From IMG/VR virus record IMGVR_UViG_3300025314_000012: 64,000 nt of DNA. The stretch is one strand, 5' to 3'. A program made the position numbers and the translations under genes. The notes beneath the pieces are model-generated. The model was given only the letters and a program-made list of their open reading frames with translations. It had not been told where the DNA came from and searched no databases. The stretch is from a virus. Below are positions 26,150 through 47,437 of this stretch, piece by piece (position 1 is the stretch's first letter; each line of letters opens with the position of its first letter).

Positions 26150-29100
26150 CTACTTGTTTACAGATATATTAGCCGTCACGAGCCTCAATTGACACTCCGT
26201 TGAACCGCTATCTGTAAATTCAACTTCTATATATTTTCCTGTTATATCTGTTCCTGTGTGGATTAACCCTAAGTTTTCACCCAATGTAGTTAGGATATTC
26301 TTAAACACGGATGAAAAGTATCCACCGTCTTTTACCTTATATGTCGAAGGATATAATACTGTCTTTTGCCCCAATGTACGTGTATTCGTAATTGGTGAAG
26401 TTATTATCGTATTCAGCCCTCTGTTGGAATCCGTTTTTAAGGCTCTCAGGCACTTTTCTTCGTTGGGAAAGGCATTTATAACACCCTTAACCGAAAAAGG
26501 CTTAGAATCGCCTAAGAACACGTTATATGAGCTTCCTGCTTCGTGTTTGTATATGCTTTCTTTTAGGAATGAATAATTCTGATTTCCTATCACACCGTAG
26601 AACTCTGCTGCATCTCCGTTACCGTCTGTCAGGTCTAAATAATCCATGTTCCACCCGTATGCATCTTTTTTGTAGCTTAAACTTCTTGCGTAACTCGGAA
26701 ACTCAAATGTTATTACATATTCTCCGTTCTTTTTGTCGAAGTAACTAAACACACGGGTAGGTGATTCATCTTTCAGTGCAAGGAACTCTGACTTCATTCC
26801 GTATCTCGAAATAGGGTGCTGTCCGTTGGGTGATGACATTATCACCTCACCCAAATCACCATCCCAATAGAACATATCTCTGCCTACTACTACTATTGAA
26901 AGCGGATAGCGTGAACCCCATTCGTCTTCACTTGGGTTTGTCGCACCGATAAAGTCGTTGGATTTTACAAGTTGTAGGTTTCCAGAAGCATCACTTATCT
27001 GTGCCTTGCCTACATACATTGACGTTTCCTTATTGTCCTGAATGACTTTTATCACGTCCCCAACTAATCTTATCCTTTGTATCTGTCCGTCTTTTTCGTC
27101 TAACTGTTTTCTGTTTAGTGAATTGAATGTGGATATTCCGTTGATTTTTGTGTTATCTAAGTAATTAAAACTCCACACGAAATCTTGTAGGGTTATTTCT
27201 CCTAATGTGTCAAATTCTACTACTACACGCCCTTTTGAGTAAGCTCGTAACGCATCATCTACGTTTATATAAAAGTCTTCTACTACTTTAGTGGAATCTC
27301 CTCCTGTCCACTCAAATTTCCTTGTTACGTACCACGCATCTTCTCCACCTACATATCCTGTTAGTGTTTGCATTACTCCGTTTGTAATGTTGTAGGTGTT
27401 GGAATCTTCAAAGTATATTAGGTCTTGTACTGTATTTTTAGTACGGTATATGTACACGAGCTTTTCTTCATAGTCGGCTGCTAATTCTTCTCCTTTGGGT
27501 ATAAGTAACCAATATCCTGCTGTGTCTGTTCCGCTTATTTCTACGGTTGTCCGTGTGCCTATAATATTCTTTACTATTGTGCTTGTTATCGCTACGCCTG
27601 AATCTACTTCTAATTGCAGGTAATCTCCTTTTTCAAATTCGTATTGTAGATTTGACGGCATATTTATAGCATATACTTCTTGCCCATCTACTGTTACTGT
27701 TTCTACTTGTCCCGACACAAATGGATACACGCCGGCAAAGTTCACTGATTCTGTTACTGCAAATCTATAATACTTAGCCCATGATGGTACTCCCGTTGTC
27801 GCCACAGGTATTGTAAAGGCTATCCTTGCCCTGTCGAAAGCATCTGTATAGGCTCTTTCCCCTGCGTGTGGTACATATACTGATTGTGGCATTAACACAC
27901 CGCTTGTCCTGCTAAATTCATCATAAAATAATACGCCTACATTATAATAGCTTCCGCTTTTAAATGTGGATACGCCACTTGGGACTGTCTCTCTTGTTGA
28001 TGTGCTTTCTACTATGTTAGTAGCTGTTATCCTCGTAGAATCGTGTACTCCTAATATTTCAAGCCTTACTACTCCTCCTCCTAATTTAGTTGCGTTTAGC
28101 TGCCATGTATTAATATTTCCATAATACACAGGGTCTATTATAGAATAGATGTCTCTGTATTTAAAGTCATATTGAATAGATGTACACACGGTGTCTGCAT
28201 CTTCTAAGGCTGCTACGGTGTATGTAAATAAATAATTCCACTCAAACGATACTTCCGGTACGAAATCACGTAATTCAAGAAACCTGTTGAATAAATTTAT
28301 TGAGATGATTTCTCCTTCTGCTACATCTGACGGTATTGTTATATCTACATAGTAATATCCATTTTCAGGTACTAAGCCTTCTATTACGCCATCTGATACT
28401 GCTAATGTATCAAACTCTGCTCCCGGAACTACTGTTTCGTATGTTATGGAATAATCTACATTTGGCTTGGTTTTATTATATCCTTTTTTTACACGCCCAA
28501 GTCCGATACGGTTCTGCACCGCCAATGCCGTCCTCGCTGTACGTGGCACGTCACTATATAAGTCCAACGCTGCTTTTTCAGCAAGCCCCTGTCTCGCAAC
28601 ATCATTGTAAAACGGATAGGTTCTGATTGCATATTCTGTTTCTCCATTCTTTTCGTATTCTTCAACTATAAACCAATCGCCTGTGTTTCCTTCTCTTGCA
28701 AGTAGCCTTACTGCACGCACATTGTCTGTGCCTAAGTCGTATCCTACCTGTACGTAGTTTCCTATGTTATTATCTTCGTAGGTATTGCTCTCTGCTGCAA
28801 ACACGGAACTTGATACTGCTAAATCTGAATATGGACTTAGTACTGAATATGTATAATCATCGTAGATATACATACTTGCAAATTGAAATGTCTTTCCTAC
28901 AAGTTTGTTTACTTTTCTTAATGAATTGCTTCCTATGCTTGTTGTGGGTTTACTACTCGGTGGACGCACCGCTAACTGTATATCGTATGAATCTAACGCT
29001 GCTACTGCCACGTCATCTAAAAGTACATTTAGTTTTCGTGGTGGGTTGTAGTCGCTTGCAAACACACAGTAATCACCCAAAATAGTAGCATCTATTATTT

Positions 29101-29446
29101 CGTCTTCCTGAAAGTTCAACACGCCATCTGCAAAGTTCATGGTGCTTGCAAAGTCATTATAGAACTTGTATATGGCATGGTGTCCTACACTGTTGTACAC
29201 AAAGAACAACGAACCATCTCTTTCCTTGTCTTCTACGAATCCTATTATCTTACTCACACCGTCAACGGGGAACAATGTAGCCACAAGTTCCATGCTTCGG
29301 ATAGAACAGTTAACACCTACTCTGCCACCCTCTGTTGAAGTTACCCTGCAATTTTTGCGTGATACTACTTCACCTTTCTCCGAATCTATGTATAGTTGGT
29401 TTTTATCCTTGTTGACCGCCCCGTTTAATGGCAATATTACTTTCAT
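26150..29446 (-). CDS. tail nozzle/muzzle (stabilisation) protein
   Basis: 1098 aa; GAVNKD...NCRV start, GKTFQFASMYIYDDYTYSVLSPYS, YGMKSEF; position after the ring proteins. Confidence 0.7.
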   Translation of the reverse strand: MKVILPLNGAVNKDKNQLYIDSEKGEVVSRKNCRVTSTEGGRVGVNCSIRSMELVATLFPVDGVSKIIGFVEDKERDGSLFFVYNSVGHHAIYKFYNDFASTMNFADGVLNFQEDEIIDATILGDYCVFASDYNPPRKLNVLLDDVAVAALDSYDIQLAVRPPSSKPTTSIGSNSLRKVNKLVGKTFQFASMYIYDDYTYSVLSPYSDLAVSSSVFAAESNTYEDNNIGNYVQVGYDLGTDNVRAVRLLAREGNTGDWFIVEEYEKNGETEYAIRTYPFYNDVARQGLAEKAALDLYSDVPRTARTALAVQNRIGLGRVKKGYNKTKPNVDYSITYETVVPGAEFDTLAVSDGVIEGLVPENGYYYVDITIPSDVAEGEIISINLFNRFLELRDFVPEVSFEWNYLFTYTVAALEDADTVCTSIQYDFKYRDIYSIIDPVYYGNINTWQLNATKLGGGVVRLEILGVHDSTRITATNIVESTSTRETVPSGVSTFKSGSYYNVGVLFYDEFSRTSGVLMPQSVYVPHAGERAYTDAFDRARIAFTIPVATTGVPSWAKYYRFAVTESVNFAGVYPFVSGQVETVTVDGQEVYAINMPSNLQYEFEKGDYLQLEVDSGVAITSTIVKNIIGTRTTVEISGTDTAGYWLLIPKGEELAADYEEKLVYIYRTKNTVQDLIYFEDSNTYNITNGVMQTLTGYVGGEDAWYVTRKFEWTGGDSTKVVEDFYINVDDALRAYSKGRVVVEFDTLGEITLQDFVWSFNYLDNTKINGISTFNSLNRKQLDEKDGQIQRIRLVGDVIKVIQDNKETSMYVGKAQISDASGNLQLVKSNDFIGATNPSEDEWGSRYPLSIVVVGRDMFYWDGDLGEVIMSSPNGQHPISRYGMKSEFLALKDESPTRVFSYFDKKNGEYVITFEFPSYARSLSYKKDAYGWNMDYLDLTDGNGDAAEFYGVIGNQNYSFLKESIYKHEAGSSYNVFLGDSKPFSVKGVINAFPNEEKCLRALKTDSNRGLNTIITSPITNTRTLGQKTVLYPSTYKVKDGGYFSSVFKNILTTLGENLGLIHTGTDITGKYIEVEFTDSGSTECQLRLVTANISVNK

Positions 29447-38250: not shown

Positions 38251-41200
38251 TTATGCAAAATTCCAATAGTCCTCTGCGTTATACGAATCAGAATTATCGC
38301 TTAGCATTTCTTCTGCGTATGGAGTTTCTGCACCCATTAGACACATACCATGTGCTGTTAACCTATCATAGTGTCTCATCATCTCCATTCCAGTAATCTC
38401 CTTACATTCTTGTAGATATTCAGCAAATGCTTCCACGTGACACCTGTTTTCAAGGTAGTCCCTTGTTCTACTGAATAGCAATTGCTTAGACCTTTCCAAC
38501 GAATCACACCCCGCTTTTTCCTTGTATCTTCCTGTCTTTAAGTCTATGTCGTAAAGAAGATATGCTCCATATTCTTTTTCGATAAAATATCTAAGCGTTT
38601 CATCTAAGTTTGTTTCAGGGTACACCATCGCCCCAAAATATATCGCTGCCTTTAACGTATCTTCGTTAAACTCATTTGAATTTGCGGGTCTATGTCTGTA
38701 AGACAACACAAACTTATATGTGTCCCAATCTTTTATTTCCTTACCGCCATCAACTGATGGGTCGTATTTAAGTAGTATAGCTATACCACCGTCAGACAAC
38801 CTACTTTTCTTGCCAAGTGAAGCACCTGTCCGTGAATCCTGTTTTGTTCCGAACTTAAACGGGTCGCACCCTAACACGTACTTGTTTGGATACTGTGGTC
38901 GCCACATTGGAATATGTTTTCCCTTTATGGAACTATATGTGCTTATCTGTATTCTTTTATTAGATACGGCAGGACTTGGAAATTCACTTATCCTAAACCT
39001 ACCATTTTCTTCATCGTGTACAAATTCAACATCGCTTCCAAACCCGTTTACCCACACTAAATCACCACGCACTGTTTTGTCTTCTCTCCTTAATTCAGCA
39101 AGCCTTTCATCTATCCTTTCAAGTGGAAATCCTATTGAACCTGCTTCTCCTAACCAACAGTCTGCATACTTAATAGGGAACAATTTCTTTTCTTCCCTAT
39201 ATGCTCTCATGGATTCTGAATCACCACGCTGAAGTAACACGTCTCTTTTGCCCTGTAAAAATTCAAGTGCTGTCTGTGTGAATCCTTCTTCTCTCTGATA
39301 GTCCAATATCGTATCTTTAACCGAAAATCCATAGCTGTCAATAAACCCGTCAAGACCCTCTGTTGCGGGTATAAACAACCTAAATAGTCCAGAAAATGTT
39401 TGTCCGCTTGACTTTATCCTTTGATAAAAGTTTGACGTATTTGCCAAGAACCTGTAATCAAAACTACCATCCGTTAATTCATCACTCGTTGATGGATAGT
39501 CTAAGTATCCAAATATGATTCTTCCATTTCCTTGTGCGCAACAGTTCTTATTTACGTCATGGCGTTTTAATACACTGACATTGGAAGTATTGTGCGCTAC
39601 CGTATTGTCTTCCAATAAAAATCTTCTGTTTCCGTCTATAACAAATCCGTAATAATCACCAACGCCAATACTCTCTACCGAAAATCCTGTATGTAACGGA
39701 TTTCTCGTATTTGGATGATGCGGCTTTCTTTCGTATCTTTTCCTGTTTACCTTACACGGTATTCTCCACAAATCAAGTCCATATATAGAAACACGAAATA
39801 CCTCACATTCATAAACACTTCCGTCTTCTCTTTTCATTCTTGCAATCTTTGGATACATAGAACAACTAAATCCCAAATCAAGTGCAAGTCTTCTTATATT
39901 TTCGGCAAGAACTTTTCTTTTTTGTGTTACTTCATATCCTGTTCTATTGCCTGTATATGCGTATCCATCCGAATCAATTAATCCCGCTAATAAACTAAGT
40001 CTGTTTTCTTCTGAATCAAAAAGGTAATCTTTTGGAATATGTTTGTTACCTATAACACCTATCTTTCTTAATTCTTCTATTAAGCTAAAATTCTTTTGTT
40101 TAATTATCTCGTAACCACGATAATTGTCTTTTGTTTTTATAGTCCAATTTATAGAACTAATAGTAGTATCAAAATATGACGCTATTTCTCCTACTGAATA
40201 AAACACAAGTTCTTCTACACCATTATTAAAAAAATATGTATATTCTGATTTTCTGGATAGATGATATGTTATTTCATCCCTAACCATTTGAGTATCGTTT
40301 AATGATGAAAACTCTTTTAAATAATCAATTATTTCAATGTCTATATTCGTAATATTAACACCACCATGATACCCATCACCAAGCCACAATCCCAAAAAAT
40401 AAGGTTCTACTACGTGCTTGTTCTCTGTGTATTTGACTGGTTTCTTATACATAACAGATGCAAGTTTGTGTCTTGGTTTCATTTTAAGATATTCCTTTAT
40501 GGTTTTCTTAAAATAATCACCACCTCTAACTCCGGGTATGGCATTACCATCACTTGACTTCAAACATAATATATGCTCGCTGTTACAAGTCCACTCTTTC
40601 CCCTGATTTGGAATTATCTTATACATTTCGTCAACACCACGTGCTAACCTTAAAACATTTCTCGGCAAAGAATCATCCCCCATCAAAACATCCCCAACTC
40701 GTATATCTTCAACATTCTTTACAGAACCATCAAACATTCTTATTTCCGTTCCTTTTCCAAAACATTTTCCGGCTTCGTCAACAAGTAGGTATGTCATCTT
40801 TTTACCATCGAAATACTTCTCTGATGCCGTTGTTGCATACACAAATTTTGTTTGTAAGGAATCAACTGCGTATTCGTTTTTGCCTACATCGAATTTTAGT
40901 GAATCAGAAGTTCTACCCGAAGACGTAAACGGTTTTATCCATATAGGAAACTTATCAAACGATGGAAGAAGTTTCATCTTAAAATGTTCTTCTGCGTTAT
41001 CGTTACTATAACTTTGAATACCACCACCGTCTGTTCCTATCGTCCTTGTAATTACCTCAACTCCATTGCTAATTGACTTATTTGTATTTCCTGAACGCCT
41101 GTTCTTTGCCTGATGCTTTCCATAGCATATTCTTCTTGGCACGTGTTTGTTGCCAATCCTATCCACTAAGTTAATCATAGAATAAGTTCCGTCTTCATTA

Positions 41201-41763
41201 GGTACGGCAAATCCGTCTTTGTCTATCTTTTCAAATGTTTCGTTTGACGTATAGCAATAATCAACAAACAGATACTCTTTTCTATCTCTATCTCTATATC
41301 CGGGTCTGTCTTCACCCTCGTTGGTATCCATTCTCCACACGTTCAAATAAAAGAAGTGCTTTCCTGTAATGTATGTTGGTTTACCCATATTGTAAAACCA
41401 ATATCCATTCATTCTATGCCACCAAAATTTTCTTATGAAATTTATTTCGTTTTTAAAATCCTTATTCCTTTCGGTAAGCATTTCCCAAAACTTCTTCTGA
41501 ATTTTTAGTAGTGTTACAACATTGTTCTTATTGGTAGCCAATTCCTCTTTAACGGATTGTACCGCTTCTTCTTCCAAGTCAATTAATCTTCTTGGCACTT
41601 CCAATCTCTTAAATCGTTGGTCTTTGTAATAATCACCGTACCCATCAATGTATTTCAACGGTGGTGGTTCGGGTAGTTTCAACACGATTGGTCGCAAGTC
41701 GGGGTCATTATCATTTAACACCACGTACTTGTCAGCGGGTATATAGTCCTTTAGATTACTCAT
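38251..41763 (-). CDS. terL: terminase large subunit containing an intein
   Basis: KNRRSG Walker A region, LLVDEAGK Walker B, GCDPF RNase H-like nuclease, YDRLTAHG final acidic motif. Confidence 0.9.
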   Translation of the reverse strand: MSNLKDYIPADKYVVLNDNDPDLRPIVLKLPEPPPLKYIDGYGDYYKDQRFKRLEVPRRLIDLEEEAVQSVKEELATNKNNVVTLLKIQKKFWEMLTERNKDFKNEINFIRKFWWHRMNGYWFYNMGKPTYITGKHFFYLNVWRMDTNEGEDRPGYRDRDRKEYLFVDYCYTSNETFEKIDKDGFAVPNEDGTYSMINLVDRIGNKHVPRRICYGKHQAKNRRSGNTNKSISNGVEVITRTIGTDGGGIQSYSNDNAEEHFKMKLLPSFDKFPIWIKPFTSSGRTSDSLKFDVGKNEYAVDSLQTKFVYATTASEKYFDGKKMTYLLVDEAGKCFGKGTEIRMFDGSVKNVEDIRVGDVLMGDDSLPRNVLRLARGVDEMYKIIPNQGKEWTCNSEHILCLKSSDGNAIPGVRGGDYFKKTIKEYLKMKPRHKLASVMYKKPVKYTENKHVVEPYFLGLWLGDGYHGGVNITNIDIEIIDYLKEFSSLNDTQMVRDEITYHLSRKSEYTYFFNNGVEELVFYSVGEIASYFDTTISSINWTIKTKDNYRGYEIIKQKNFSLIEELRKIGVIGNKHIPKDYLFDSEENRLSLLAGLIDSDGYAYTGNRTGYEVTQKRKVLAENIRRLALDLGFSCSMYPKIARMKREDGSVYECEVFRVSIYGLDLWRIPCKVNRKRYERKPHHPNTRNPLHTGFSVESIGVGDYYGFVIDGNRRFLLEDNTVAHNTSNVSVLKRHDVNKNCCAQGNGRIIFGYLDYPSTSDELTDGSFDYRFLANTSNFYQRIKSSGQTFSGLFRLFIPATEGLDGFIDSYGFSVKDTILDYQREEGFTQTALEFLQGKRDVLLQRGDSESMRAYREEKKLFPIKYADCWLGEAGSIGFPLERIDERLAELRREDKTVRGDLVWVNGFGSDVEFVHDEENGRFRISEFPSPAVSNKRIQISTYSSIKGKHIPMWRPQYPNKYVLGCDPFKFGTKQDSRTGASLGKKSRLSDGGIAILLKYDPSVDGGKEIKDWDTYKFVLSYRHRPANSNEFNEDTLKAAIYFGAMVYPETNLDETLRYFIEKEYGAYLLYDIDLKTGRYKEKAGCDSLERSKQLLFSRTRDYLENRCHVEAFAEYLQECKEITGMEMMRHYDRLTAHGMCLMGAETPYAEEMLSDNSDSYNAEDYWNFA
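39589..40764 (-). mobile_element. intein with LAGLIDADG homing endonuclease (residues 334-725, 392 aa)
   Basis: Starts CFGKGT.IRMFDGS.K.VEDIRVGD; YFLGLWLGDG and LAGLIDSDG blocks; ends FLLEDNTVAHN followed by Thr. Confidence 0.9.
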
Positions 41764-42472
41764 CAGGCAATTTATCTCCTACAAATCTAAGCTGTTGTAT
41801 AGTAAAATTCACCCCATAAGGGCAATCTAGTCTTAAGTCATCGCCATCGGCAAGTGCGTGAGCATAGTCCTCCGGTCTAATGGCGAGTCTCGACTGCTCA
41901 ATCTGATAATAGAATCTCGACACAAAATCCTCTGTCTCCGGTACTGCCTGATTTGACATTTTCTTTTCGATAGCATTTTTCTCACGCCACAAAGTGTTCA
42001 CCTCCTTGATTGACTTAATGTCCTGCTTTTCTTTCATAGCACTCAGCACGTGTCCTGCCATAGCCTCTTGTAGATACACAAGGTAGTCCCAATCTTTTTT
42101 GTTTGTCCACTTTGTATAAAGAAGTATCATGTCTAATACGTCTTTATTTTTTCCTAACACCATCTGTACCACACGCTCGTCAAACCTCTGTTGCCCGTCA
42201 TGCTTTGACTTTGTCTGTGGAAATCCTGCATACGCAGCCGCTTCCCATTTCTGTCCCCAATAGTCAAGTGAGTTCATTTGATGAATGGGTGAGTTCGGGT
42301 CGTACATTAATACTATATAACGTAGCACCTGCGACTTGGTGAACGTCTTTTCCTTGAAATCTGTAAATATTTTTAACTGTGGTATCTCTTTCTCCAAGAA
42401 CGTCACAAGCTGTGGTGAGTTCGGGTGAATAGACATTTTTGAACAGTCAAGTGATTTTATGTCTCTATCCAT
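41756..42472 (-). CDS. possible terminase small subunit / packaging-associated protein
   Basis: Overlaps the terL start; own promoter at 42491-42498; call is positional only. Confidence 0.4.
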   Translation of the reverse strand: MDRDIKSLDCSKMSIHPNSPQLVTFLEKEIPQLKIFTDFKEKTFTKSQVLRYIVLMYDPNSPIHQMNSLDYWGQKWEAAAYAGFPQTKSKHDGQQRFDERVVQMVLGKNKDVLDMILLYTKWTNKKDWDYLVYLQEAMAGHVLSAMKEKQDIKSIKEVNTLWREKNAIEKKMSNQAVPETEDFVSRFYYQIEQSRLAIRPEDYAHALADGDDLRLDCPYGVNFTIQQLRFVGDKLPDE

Positions 42473-42571
42473 ATCGTATTATGTTGCACACAAATATAAC
42501 ACGCTGAAATTTAGGCATAAAAAAAGCTGCACCACGAATGATACAGCTTAATACTCATAAGTTAAATAAAG

Positions 42572-42817
42572 TTATTCTATGTATAACACCTCCCTCTCCC
42601 CTATCACCAAATATTTACTTCCGTCAAGTTCTATCTCTGTTCCCCTTGTGGTGAAGATTACGCTATCTCCTACACACACTTCATCACCACCGATAACCAC
42701 CTCACCACGCTTCTGTCTTTCTTCTACTGCATTGGGTATTATCACACCACCCGCAGTCTTTGTTAACTTGTCTATTCTCTTTACAAGTATCTTTCCTTTT
42801 GGTACTTTTCCTTTCAT
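42572..42817 (-). CDS. groES: GroES/Cpn10 co-chaperonin
   Basis: ILVKR...KTAGGVIIP.AVEE...GEVV...VCVGDSVIF...GTEIELDGSKYLVIGEREVL. Confidence 0.85.
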   Translation of the reverse strand: MKGKVPKGKILVKRIDKLTKTAGGVIIPNAVEERQKRGEVVIGGDEVCVGDSVIFTTRGTEIELDGSKYLVIGEREVLYIE

Positions 42818-43509
42818 AACACACCCACTATAAATATTTTCTGCACAAACCCCAATTCCCTATCTATCGTCTTAAACAGGCTGTATTCTATCGCTGTCCA
42901 AAAGCCACCATCAAACACAACTTCATCGCCTACTTCCACGTCTGCATCATACAGCTTTGAACCGTAGTGGTATTCTGTATTTGTTCCATTCACCACGACC
43001 ACACCCAACCTCTTATCCTGCTCTGCATCCAAAGTTTTTATTATGCTCGATTGCACACTTTCTTTCATCACCTTTTCTACTAAACAATATCCGTTTAACG
43101 GTATCATTTTGTTTCCACGCTTTGTAAACACCAAGTCTGAGTAGTTCATTATGTAATACAACACACCGCCCACAATCAGTTCCACGGCATTTGCAGAGCC
43201 TATCTTAGTGAAATATACTGTATCTCCTTCTTCTATCTCTATGGTTGTTTTCCACTCCATACAGCCGTTAAAATGATACTGTGGGCGTGTCTTTAATACT
43301 TTTGGTATTTTAGTCACCACGCCATACCTTGCTACGTGTGCTGATTCATTCCACATCACACCGCCAACTCCTGACAATATTATTCCACTGTCTAACACAA
43401 CGTCTTCCATCGGATTAAAGTCTATCCTGATAAGAACGTTATTGTTCATCATCTGTGACGGTAACTTGTCTGTAGTGTAGGATTGTTTTGCTCCTGCGCT
43501 ATTGTTCAT
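42814..43509 (-). CDS. tandem double GroES-domain protein
   Basis: Domain 1: NVLIRI..LDSGIIL..YGVV..IEEGDTVYF..YYIMNYSDL. Domain 2: PLNGYCLVEKV..SSII..LGVVV..VEVGDEVVF. Confidence 0.7.
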   Translation of the reverse strand: MNNSAGAKQSYTTDKLPSQMMNNNVLIRIDFNPMEDVVLDSGIILSGVGGVMWNESAHVARYGVVTKIPKVLKTRPQYHFNGCMEWKTTIEIEEGDTVYFTKIGSANAVELIVGGVLYYIMNYSDLVFTKRGNKMIPLNGYCLVEKVMKESVQSSIIKTLDAEQDKRLGVVVVNGTNTEYHYGSKLYDADVEVGDEVVFDGGFWTAIEYSLFKTIDRELGFVQKIFIVGVL

Positions 43510-43735
43510 GCCAATAAAGTATTTTGTTTGTACCTACAATGTAATTACCATCTTTACTAAAGCACCCCTTTGTGTTGAATAGCACCATTGAATCTGTTTT
43601 TACTTCTTCGTTGCCTTTTACACACACGCCCCACTGCAAGTCTTTCTTTGTTGCCGTTTCAGGAATGATCAACGAAGTGTTTACATTTTCTTCGATTAAC
43701 GTTACTAATATGTTATTTCCTTTTGGTGTCACCAT
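43499..43735 (-). CDS. divergent GroES-like protein
   Basis: TPKGNNILVTL..TSLIIPETA..WGVCVKG.EEVKTDSMVLF. Confidence 0.65.
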   Translation of the reverse strand: MVTPKGNNILVTLIEENVNTSLIIPETATKKDLQWGVCVKGNEEVKTDSMVLFNTKGCFSKDGNYIVGTNKILYWHEQ

Positions 43736-43744
43736 ATTTTTTGT

Positions 43745-44398
43745 TTATTTTAAGTTTTCGGTTGTAAGTATCATTGTGCTTAGTTCACACAAAACTCTAT
43801 TCAAGAACACACGTATAGATTCATCTTTTTCCTGTATAAATCCTTCTGTCCAACCGGGTTCATAATTAAATTCTTTAAACGAAAAAGTGTAATCAACAAT
43901 CCACCCATGTCCAATAGTATATATAGAAATAGATAAAATCTTTGGTTCTGTTCTACCGCTGTAGTCTGGATGAGCAAATTCATCTTTAAGAAATTTTCCG
44001 TCAAGTCTTTGTATTTCAAAAATTAATCCAATTGTGCTTTTTTCTAAAAACGACTTAAAATCAAAATTAAACTTTAACATTCTATATTTGGATGGATAAA
44101 TAGATTCTTTTTCTCTCCATTCTTTAAGTGGCTTATTCTCATTACCATAAACGGCACGTGCAAAAATAGCATCAAAATAATTATTTAATTCCGTTGAGCT
44201 GTCTGGTAACTTACATTTACAGTCGTAGTTATTTGCCGAATATCCGAACAAAGATTTATTTATTCCGTCCCTATACCACCCATATTGATGAGAAAACCCA
44301 TTGCCTGTTTTAAGCATCCAATCAAGAACTGCCATTTTTATTTCCAAATCATATTCGTGTCCAATCAATTTAGAAAAGGCTATTTTAATTGTTTTCAT
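43745..44398 (-). CDS. hypothetical protein
   Basis: 217-aa AT-rich ORF. Confidence 0.65.
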   Translation of the reverse strand: MKTIKIAFSKLIGHEYDLEIKMAVLDWMLKTGNGFSHQYGWYRDGINKSLFGYSANNYDCKCKLPDSSTELNNYFDAIFARAVYGNENKPLKEWREKESIYPSKYRMLKFNFDFKSFLEKSTIGLIFEIQRLDGKFLKDEFAHPDYSGRTEPKILSISIYTIGHGWIVDYTFSFKEFNYEPGWTEGFIQEKDESIRVFLNRVLCELSTMILTTENLK

Positions 44399-47063: not shown

Positions 47064-47168
47064 AAAAAAGCCGCCCAAAGCGGGCGGCAGTATGATAAGT
47101 ACATATAGAACTAAGGTTGAAAACAACCCCTGAAAATCCAATCTTATATAATCTAATACCTATCATAG
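47064..47168 (-). ncRNA. candidate small RNA 3 (~100 nt)
   Basis: -7 box TATCTTTG at 47172-47179; inverted repeat 47090-47101/47157-47168; GCCGCCC/GGGCGGC-T6 terminator at 47064-47088. Confidence 0.35.
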
Positions 47169-47437
47169 CGACAAAGATAATAATTTATTTTTATCCCCAA
47201 AATATATACATAATTATTTCACGAAGATAGTTAAAATAAATTTAGTGTGCAAGTATTTTGTCAACTATTTTGCGCAATATACTATACTTTGTGTATAATA
47301 TTGCACTTAGATGCTAAAATATTAGCCAAAGTTGGTTATAATTGACAAATTAGCCAATATACTGCATATTTTGGTACATATTTTAGGAACGTGGTGCAAA
47401 AATAGTATTTTGCGGGATAAGTTTGTGTTATTTGTCG

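Follow-up and report, generated by a model that had tools for sequence, protein, structure and literature searches.

Why should a bacteriophage in whose genome no GroEL gene can be found carry three adjacent genes for GroES-like co-chaperonins? This question is raised by the IMG/VR virus record IMGVR_UViG_3300025314_000012, of which a stretch of 64,000 nucleotides (nt), referred to here as the window, was analyzed. Three overlapping genes on its minus strand encode proteins of 78, 231 and 81 amino acids (aa), termed S78, the tandem protein and S81; the open reading frames (ORFs), as described by a first-pass annotation made from the sequence alone, lie where that annotation had placed them. 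The one textbook example of a phage co-chaperonin is T4 gp31, which, like RB49 CocO, takes the place of GroES on the host GroEL in folding the capsid protein; the other source of knowledge is metagenome surveys, in which phage co-chaperonins are handled as small genes standing singly. We favor the reading, which we consider probable by a modest measure, that the three genes encode subunits of one mixed phage co-chaperonin lid for the host GroEL.

GroES domains encoded by the cluster

By profile comparison and modeled fold, all four domains encoded by the cluster are homologues of GroES (Cpn10, PF00166). S81 matched Pfam Cpn10 with an E of 3.1e-12 (46.8 bits against a cut-off of 21.1) and PHROG 3188 (E 9e-12), and phmmer related it to Cpn20 (1.2e-12) and to bacterial GroES (6e-12). 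The tandem protein matched Pfam Cpn10 above the cut-off, in two stretches (E 6.8e-9). S78 alone stayed below the Pfam cut-off (E 0.045), and a word-based homologue search with it returned nothing besides itself. A profile (A3) of eight S78 relatives, gathered from the flanks of tandem-gene loci, matched Cpn20 (E 3.6e-14) and, at about 1e-8, bacterial GroES; each of the relatives matched Pfam Cpn10, and the top 31 Protein Data Bank (PDB) rows for the AlphaFold2 model of S78 (predicted local distance difference test, pLDDT, 83.4) were all Cpn10. The assignment of the proteins to Cpn10 in the first-pass annotation is thereby borne out, by Pfam directly for S81 and the tandem protein, and through the family profile and the fold for S78.

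In NCBIfam, all three proteins matched GroES models only, with best scores of 50.6 bits for S81, 25.3 bits for the tandem protein and 18.4 bits for S78, none of which reached the equivalog or subfamily cut-offs of 96-215. Since the scores are far below the equivalog cut-offs, the three proteins are homologues, not orthologues, of cellular GroES, to which their identity is about 15-25%. The earlier description of S81 as a canonical-looking GroES does not hold, as the protein is far under these cut-offs and lacks the roof hairpin.

The 231-aa protein is, according to its predicted structure, a tandem of two head-to-tail Cpn10 domains resembling Cpn20, in agreement with the double GroES proposed from the sequence. 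The AlphaFold2 model, built from 11 homologues (pLDDT 74.8; predicted template modeling score 0.73), contained two beta-barrel domains. Its best matches in the PDB were Chlamydomonas Cpn20/Cpn23 (7ekq), over both domains, with Foldseek E values of 4e-7 and 3e-5 to 7ekq_R and 7ekq_Q over 233-238 columns. On the ring-embedded Cpn23 of 7ekq, model positions 9-231 gave a VIA Z of 11.4 over 180 residues at a root-mean-square deviation of 4.2; because both domains superpose together on this subunit, the geometry between them fits neighboring ring positions. Domain 1 alone (model residues 14-132) gave VIA Z values of 9-10.3 against whole GroES chains. In the window protein, domain 1 gives a weak sequence signal, aligning collinearly with the S78 profile in hhalign at E 3e-4, and the domain 1 of relatives matched Pfam Cpn10 directly (17.6 bits in locus L008, 41 bits in protein P0057). 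The profile of the tandem family (A1) matched both Cpn20 and GroES chains, domain 2 about equally to bacterial GroES and Cpn20. Among AlphaFold DB clusters, the two-domain matches were two entries that were unnamed or called 'putative chaperonin', followed by chloroplast Cpn20; the only named two-domain GroES matches in the libraries searched were plastid Cpn20 proteins.

The four loop sequences on which the first-pass annotation had remarked (TSLIIP, DSGIIL, QSSII and AGGVIIP) are present in the translations and lie at the mobile-loop position. The loop comprises residues 19-28 of S78 (NTSLIIPETA), a long segment at residues 35-53 of domain 1 (..DSGIIL..) and residues 151-162, approximately, of domain 2 (..QSSIIK..); the loops appear flexible in the models, as the pLDDT was <50 in the first two and at residues 155-160 in the third. 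The S81 loop, TAGGVIIPN, is the closest of the four to the canonical one. At the aligned loop position, the hydrophobic triplets are LII in S78, III (I43-I44-L45) in domain 1, II followed by K in domain 2 and VII in S81. Over 133 representatives of the tandem family, G42 of the domain-1 loop was kept in 89% and positions 43 and 45 were hydrophobic, and in the domain-2 loop position 156 was hydrophobic in 98% and position 158 in 88%; a Gly/Ser-hydrophobic-x-hydrophobic motif is kept in both tandem domains.

The domains also differ at the roof. The roof hairpin is absent from S78 and S81, with a gap of 12 residues relative to bacterial GroES, and has normal length in domain 2. Domain 1 carries about 25 additional residues at this position (residues 67-91; Pro69, Trp86 and Glu91 conserved), which is the extra insert noticed in the first-pass annotation.

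A tandem family and its gene neighborhoods

Homologues of the tandem protein were found in public assemblies at 34-50% identity, with more of them in contigs of viral and metagenomic origin. When 1.84 billion cluster representatives were searched by profile, 1,754 matched at E<=1e-3; the number fell to 1,036 at E<=1e-10 and to 283 at E<=1e-30. Most of the matching proteins measured 210-270 aa and aligned over their full length, and the ten clusters that were looked up all lacked a name. A scan of 185,579 species genomes with the family alignment (A1) found no tandem relatives, and DNA and protein searches with the cluster, including tblastn, gave no match among 50,697 phage records to the 231-aa protein or the tandem protein of locus L023; the capsid-region protein had no match in the same records. 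A scan of viral contigs with a single protein returned none, and the alignment-based scan did yield relatives. The family was seen only in viral or metagenomic sequence, and on this sequence evidence the 231-aa protein defines a phage family that is large and has not been described so far.

The remark in the first-pass annotation that such an arrangement was undescribed in phages calls for correction as regards the tandem form, which is not unique to this phage: it belongs to this large metagenomic family, and cultured phages encode GroES-labeled proteins of 180-200 aa. These long forms, annotated as 'co-chaperonin GroES', are gp092 of Cellulophaga phage phi46:3 and cpn10 of phi18:3 (200 aa), gp30 of the Flavobacterium phage Elemovirus (180 aa) and CDS0088 of Maribacter phage Panino (182 aa); the genes of phi46:3, Elemovirus and Panino lie just upstream of the large terminase gene. 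The BFVD model of phi18:3 cpn10 and three unnamed viral proteins matched the 231-aa model over both domains (phi18:3, Foldseek E 2e-6 over 243 columns), so that at least the Cellulophaga long GroES is, by its model, of the same two-domain fold. No match was found by tblastn between the cluster and the isolate proteins, and profile matches were weak, as were the hhalign matches of Elemovirus gp30 to the tandem and single profiles; no relation of gp30 to the 238-aa protein encoded next to the large terminase in the window was seen. Pfam Cpn10 was detected in the C-terminal half of the phi46:3 protein only, and not in the Elemovirus and Panino proteins. The isolate proteins differ from the window protein in being shorter than 231 aa and in having no flanking single GroES genes, and the papers searched mention them as GroES homologues only, with nothing on a tandem nature. 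Elemovirus and Panino, the two that were checked, also encode GroEL (PMC11590407 for Panino). As a separate observation, the long genes of Elemovirus (L024:9422-9964) and Panino (L036:4898-5446) abut the large terminase gene, with no other gene in the small-terminase slot, which raises the question whether these proteins double as, or replace, the small terminase.

In a synteny survey of the kind suggested in the first-pass annotation, 12 of the 14 distinct loci had a single-domain GroES, either encoded next to the tandem gene or fused with it. The order single, tandem, single occurs in the window and in L008-L010; a single gene next to the tandem gene was found in L007, L012/L020, L014 and L015, and in L018 the single gene lies upstream with other genes between. 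The single Cpn10 domain is fused N-terminally to the tandem unit in P0097/L034, P0141, P0105 and P0071, and C-terminally in P0010, P0053 and P0063/L033, and in L013 two fused single domains precede the tandem gene. The tandem gene stands alone in L011. In L023, the genes for GroEL, a single GroES, the tandem protein, a small-terminase-like protein and the large terminase follow one another with overlaps, and in L002 a GroEL gene lies 0.7 kb upstream, separated from the tandem gene by two small, unrelated genes that are not GroES. That GroEL shares the gene run in these two more distant relatives ties the tandem protein to a GroEL system. The small ORFs beside the tandem gene of L011, L002 and L033, like those downstream of it in L007, had no likeness to GroES.

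Other genes were noted beside the tandem genes. In P0058 (569 aa), a GIY-YIG/NUMOD3 homing endonuclease precedes the tandem unit (residues 329-563) in the same called protein, which reflects either an endonuclease inserted beside the gene or a read-through gene call. A gene for an HSP20 small heat-shock protein (L033:7010-7288, plus strand) lies about 0.7 kb upstream of the fused tandem and single gene on a contig of 34.9 kb; this adds a second chaperone type to the neighborhood, as was also reported near viral GroES>GroEL operons in a survey of virioplankton (PMC5649160). A 315-aa Metallophos phosphoesterase is encoded between the tandem and small-terminase-like genes at L012:8657-9604 and L014:6615-7562, and the phage of the window has a Metallophos gene elsewhere in its genome.

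In the window, the S78 and tandem genes overlap by 11 nt, and the tandem and S81 genes by 4 nt (ATGA), all head to tail. These overlaps, together with a terminator-like hairpin that occurs only past the third gene (Table 1), indicate co-expression of the three genes. The possibility that the 78- and 231-aa genes are one frameshifted gene was rejected, the split with its overlapping stop and start being kept in L007, L008 and L014.

The gene arrangement bears on whether the proteins act together or apart. Three separate co-chaperonins could form homo-oligomeric lids, the singles as heptamers and the tandem protein as tetramers in the manner of plant Cpn20, for different clients, times or host GroELs. 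S81 is near enough to ordinary GroES to form rings alone, Cpn20 of plants functions as a homo-oligomer (PMC4242682), and in L011 and L002 the tandem protein evidently can work with no phage single partner. The recurrent fusions of single and tandem units, in both orders, place both in one polypeptide and therefore in one assembly, and the tight translational coupling and conserved gene order fit one complex better. We therefore regard separate lids as unlikely.

The phage itself supplies no visible partner for such proteins. Its genome is a circle of about 77.1 kb that was assembled repeatedly from soil and sediment metagenomes; gene lists and DNA of overlapping copies cover the full circle, about 5 kb of it being known from the gene list only. 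No Cpn60 match was present in the gene lists of the full circle, in which no product encoded outside the window exceeds 367 aa. Three phage GroELs used as tblastn queries had no match in the window or the four overlapping copies that were retrieved, together all of the circle except about 5 kb. As a control, the three queries found each other at E <1e-69. The description of the cluster as lacking GroEL is thus upheld by the gene lists for the whole genome and by tblastn for the window and its flanks. Similarly, no Cpn60 was found in the viral records of four related loci (L007, L008, L011 and L012), of which three are at least 90% complete and one has terminal repeats, and the control genomes all scored. 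Because the phage encodes no GroEL, any chaperonin partner must be that of the host. The large terminase shows about 24-28% identity to those of Flavobacterium (Elemovirus), Cellulophaga (Pachyviridae and others), Tenacibaculum and Maribacter phages, the nearest isolate terminases being those of Flavobacterium and Cellulophaga phages at about 24%; this relationship fits a host among the Flavobacteriia, as judged from the terminase sequence. A tyrosine integrase of 266 aa is encoded in the same phage genome outside the window (L005:19475-20275), so the phage may be temperate, although no relative of the tandem gene was seen in the 185,579 species genomes.

The number of GroES domains per locus is two in L011 and L002, three in L007, L012, L014, L023, L033 and L034, and four in the window, L008 and L013. 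Such numbers would be explained if phage subunits mixed with host GroES monomers and the host completed the ring, as two, three or four phage domains would then never need to sum to seven. With identities of about 15-25% to cellular GroES, it is uncertain that the interfaces could be shared, and we consider mixing with host monomers very improbable.

A candidate mixed lid beside the packaging genes

We propose that the tandem protein and the two single-domain proteins would be translated from one message at the end of a replication-gene operon, through overlapping stop and start codons. The products would join laterally to form a single mixed dome with about seven GroES domains, made up for instance of two tandem and three single subunits, or of three tandem subunits and one single. 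The dome would dock on the host GroEL ring by its mobile loops, which are of four kinds and all bear a hydrophobic triplet, and its roof and cavity would differ from those of the host GroES lid, because the singles lack the roof hairpin and domain 1 has an enlarged one. Its purpose is likely that of T4 gp31, namely that host GroEL would fold large phage structural proteins, such as the presumed capsid protein of 469 aa, identified by position and encoded just downstream of the cluster. Pfam contains no family for the proteins in the portal, scaffold and capsid positions, and the clients are named by position only. A mixed lid is favored because of the translational coupling, the conserved adjacency of tandem and single genes and the natural fusions at either end. 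The link to GroEL is supported by the conservation of the GroEL-contact motif in each domain and by the overlapping operon of L023 with GroEL and a single GroES.

Several points weigh against this proposal. The mixed ring, its stoichiometry, the binding to GroEL and the clients are what we infer from gene sequences and models. One copy of each gene amounts to four domains, a number that does not divide into seven, and as the relatives have two, three or four, no one stoichiometry would suit them all. In the loop of domain 2, Ser replaces the usual Gly and the hydrophobic pair is followed by a Lys; the S78 loop has Ser as well. In Elemovirus, the canonical GroES sits with the phage GroEL and the long form apart, beside the terminase, which hints at a role of its own for the long form. 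AlphaFold2 may, moreover, have copied the Cpn20 geometry from its training data, so the ring-like packing of the modeled domains is weak evidence. With regard to composition, a ring of eight domains, as in the Cpn20 tetramer, is also possible, as is one in which host GroES fills the remaining places.

The surroundings of the cluster were described in the first-pass annotation as packaging genes. The cluster is indeed adjacent to them in the window, where the gene of a conserved 238-aa protein and that of the large terminase open the packaging and structural block; a terminator-like hairpin lies between, however, and the cluster of L008 is not beside the terminase. On the 5' side, a helicase, a DUF3127 single-strand-binding protein and a 217-aa orphan are encoded in the same direction as the GroES genes. 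By these signals, the hairpin would end a transcription unit with the helicase, single-strand-binding protein and GroES genes, and the GroES cluster would close this preceding replication-gene unit, outside the packaging operon. Past the hairpin, TATATTTG, a match to the Bacteroidota -7 promoter box (TAnnTTTG), is likely the start of the packaging and structural operon, an inference from position and motif. Full TTTG-N-TAnnTTTG motifs at other intergenic sites of the window numbered 6, as compared with 3.3 expected from shuffles, and are not enriched.

Table 1. Positions in the window of the GroES genes and domains, transcription signals and adjacent packaging genes.
Feature	Position	Strand	Basis or remark
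S78 gene, single-domain divergent GroES, 78 aa	43499..43735	-	ORF
Tandem GroES gene, 231 aa	42814..43509	-	ORF
Domain 1, residues 18-132, divergent Cpn10 barrel	43114..43458	-	fold
Domain 2, residues 133-231 and stop codon	42814..43113	-	Pfam Cpn10, best stretch 135-202
S81 gene, single-domain GroES, 81 aa	42572..42817	-	ORF
Intrinsic-terminator-like hairpin, 11-pair stem and T7 run	42524..42549	-	terminator scan; 23 nt past S81 stop
TATATTTG, match to Bacteroidota -7 promoter box	42491..42498	-	by eye; 19 nt before next gene start
238-aa conserved protein in small-terminase position	41756..42472	-	context, outside the chaperonin set
Large terminase, 1170 aa, intein-interrupted	38251..41763	-	Hom_end_hint/LAGLIDADG matches; context

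The nearness of long GroES-like genes to the terminase suggests a further explanation, independent of GroEL, in which the proteins would serve as a factor in head, portal or terminase assembly or in packaging, or would cap the host ClpP like Chlamydomonas Cpn11/20/23 (7ekq). Across very distant phages, the long gene retains a position directly upstream of the large terminase (the window, L007, L012, L014, L023, L034, Elemovirus, Panino and phi46:3), the small-terminase slot of Elemovirus and Panino contains no other gene, and among solved structures the best match is that of a co-chaperonin in complex with ClpP. Weighed against this are the GroEL-contact loop motif, conserved in both tandem domains across the family, the operon of L023, in which GroEL and a single GroES accompany the tandem gene, the position of the L008 cluster away from the terminase, and the terminator that parts the cluster from the packaging genes in the window. 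We find a role apart from GroEL distinctly unlikely, and retain one mixed lid for host GroEL as the preferred reading.

The 238-aa protein had no match in Pfam, PHROG or NCBIfam and is named by its position only; its homologues lie directly upstream of the large terminase in L007, L012, L014 and L023. The large terminase contains an intein, as indicated by its Hint/LAGLIDADG homing-endonuclease matches and its length of 1170 aa in comparison with the 770-774 aa of relatives without the insert. The 217-aa gene directly 5' of the GroES cluster (43745-44398, minus strand) had no family match and no homologue in the related loci fetched. Further upstream, in the stretch 47070-47201 (minus strand), two to three terminator-like hairpins (47130-47113, 47088-47070) come within about 100 nt after a full promoter motif of the Bacteroidota type (47201-47172); the stretch precedes the helicase gene and could be a short RNA or an attenuator. 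Elsewhere in the window, a 1098-aa protein (26150-29446, minus strand) showed a weak match to the C-terminal domain of the crAss-virus muzzle protein (E 0.0011, below the cut-off), which hints at a crAss-like or podovirus-type tail.

Relation to plastid and phage co-chaperonins

In plastids, a mixed ring resolves the mismatch between domain pairs and the seven-fold ring, and the fit of plastid Cpn20 to the seven-fold GroEL ring is still debated. The nearest known counterpart of the cluster is the plastid set of Cpn20 with Cpn10, Cpn11 or Cpn23 (Chlamydomonas Cpn11/20/23, PDB 7ekq; Arabidopsis Cpn20/Cpn10(1)), which likewise combines two head-to-tail Cpn10 domains with single-domain Cpn10 proteins, and which gave the best PDB match, by structure and by sequence, for the 231-, 78- and 81-aa proteins. 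The phage proteins differ from Cpn20 in that the identity is 15-17%, the system belongs to a phage and not to an organelle, the genes are clustered and coupled, and the partner would be a bacterial host GroEL. They also differ in the large roof insert of phage domain 1 and in the missing roof hairpins of the phage singles. Since the identity to Cpn20 is only 15-17%, the duplication in the phage lineage was probably independent of that in plastids, as far as the sequences tell.

The cluster resembles T4 gp31 as a phage-encoded lid of GroES fold in a phage without its own GroEL, with missing roof hairpins, altered mobile loops and a large capsid protein. It differs in that gp31 is one gene and a homo-heptamer, whereas here three genes encode four domains including a tandem fusion. 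The 231-aa model matched gp31 (1g31/2cgt) with VIA Z values of 6.3-7.2, which reflects general likeness of the GroES fold and is below the matches to cellular GroES; no sequence relation of the cluster proteins to gp31 was detected.

The virioplankton survey of Marine et al. (2017) found that GroES-only viruses are common, and described, on contigs of Cellulophaga-podovirus type, GroEL>GroES operons that are followed by a conserved ORF without a name (PMC5649160). Viral GroES proteins in that survey show deletions of the roof hairpin and changes of the loop Gly to Ser or Asn, and GroES is treated as a single-domain gene, the words tandem and fusion being absent (PMC5649160). Locus L023 shares the GroEL>GroES order of these contigs, and the unnamed downstream ORF of PMC5649160 may, from its position, be a tandem GroES.

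The cluster joins known types, namely phage co-chaperonins and tandem lids of the Cpn20 type, and is of value chiefly in revealing a family so large and varied. A wider proposal, which we advance tentatively and would place a little short of evenly balanced, is that Bacteroidota phages independently evolved an asymmetric lid in the style of Cpn20/Cpn10, that is, a hetero-oligomeric ring with up to four GroEL-binding loops and a patchwork roof, which would take over the host GroEL (in some relatives, a phage GroEL) for virion proteins and would be the first such system outside plastids. The tandem solution probably arose more than once. The annotation of the family is also corrected, as most members are unnamed and the cultured examples are labeled plain GroES. 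The natural variants, with two, three or four domains and with or without a phage GroEL, offer material for testing the rules of lid assembly. These data suggest that many Bacteroidota phages remodel host protein folding more elaborately than T4 and, if the proposal of a mixed lid is true, the cluster would provide a simple bacterial model for the use of even-numbered domain units in a seven-fold chaperonin.

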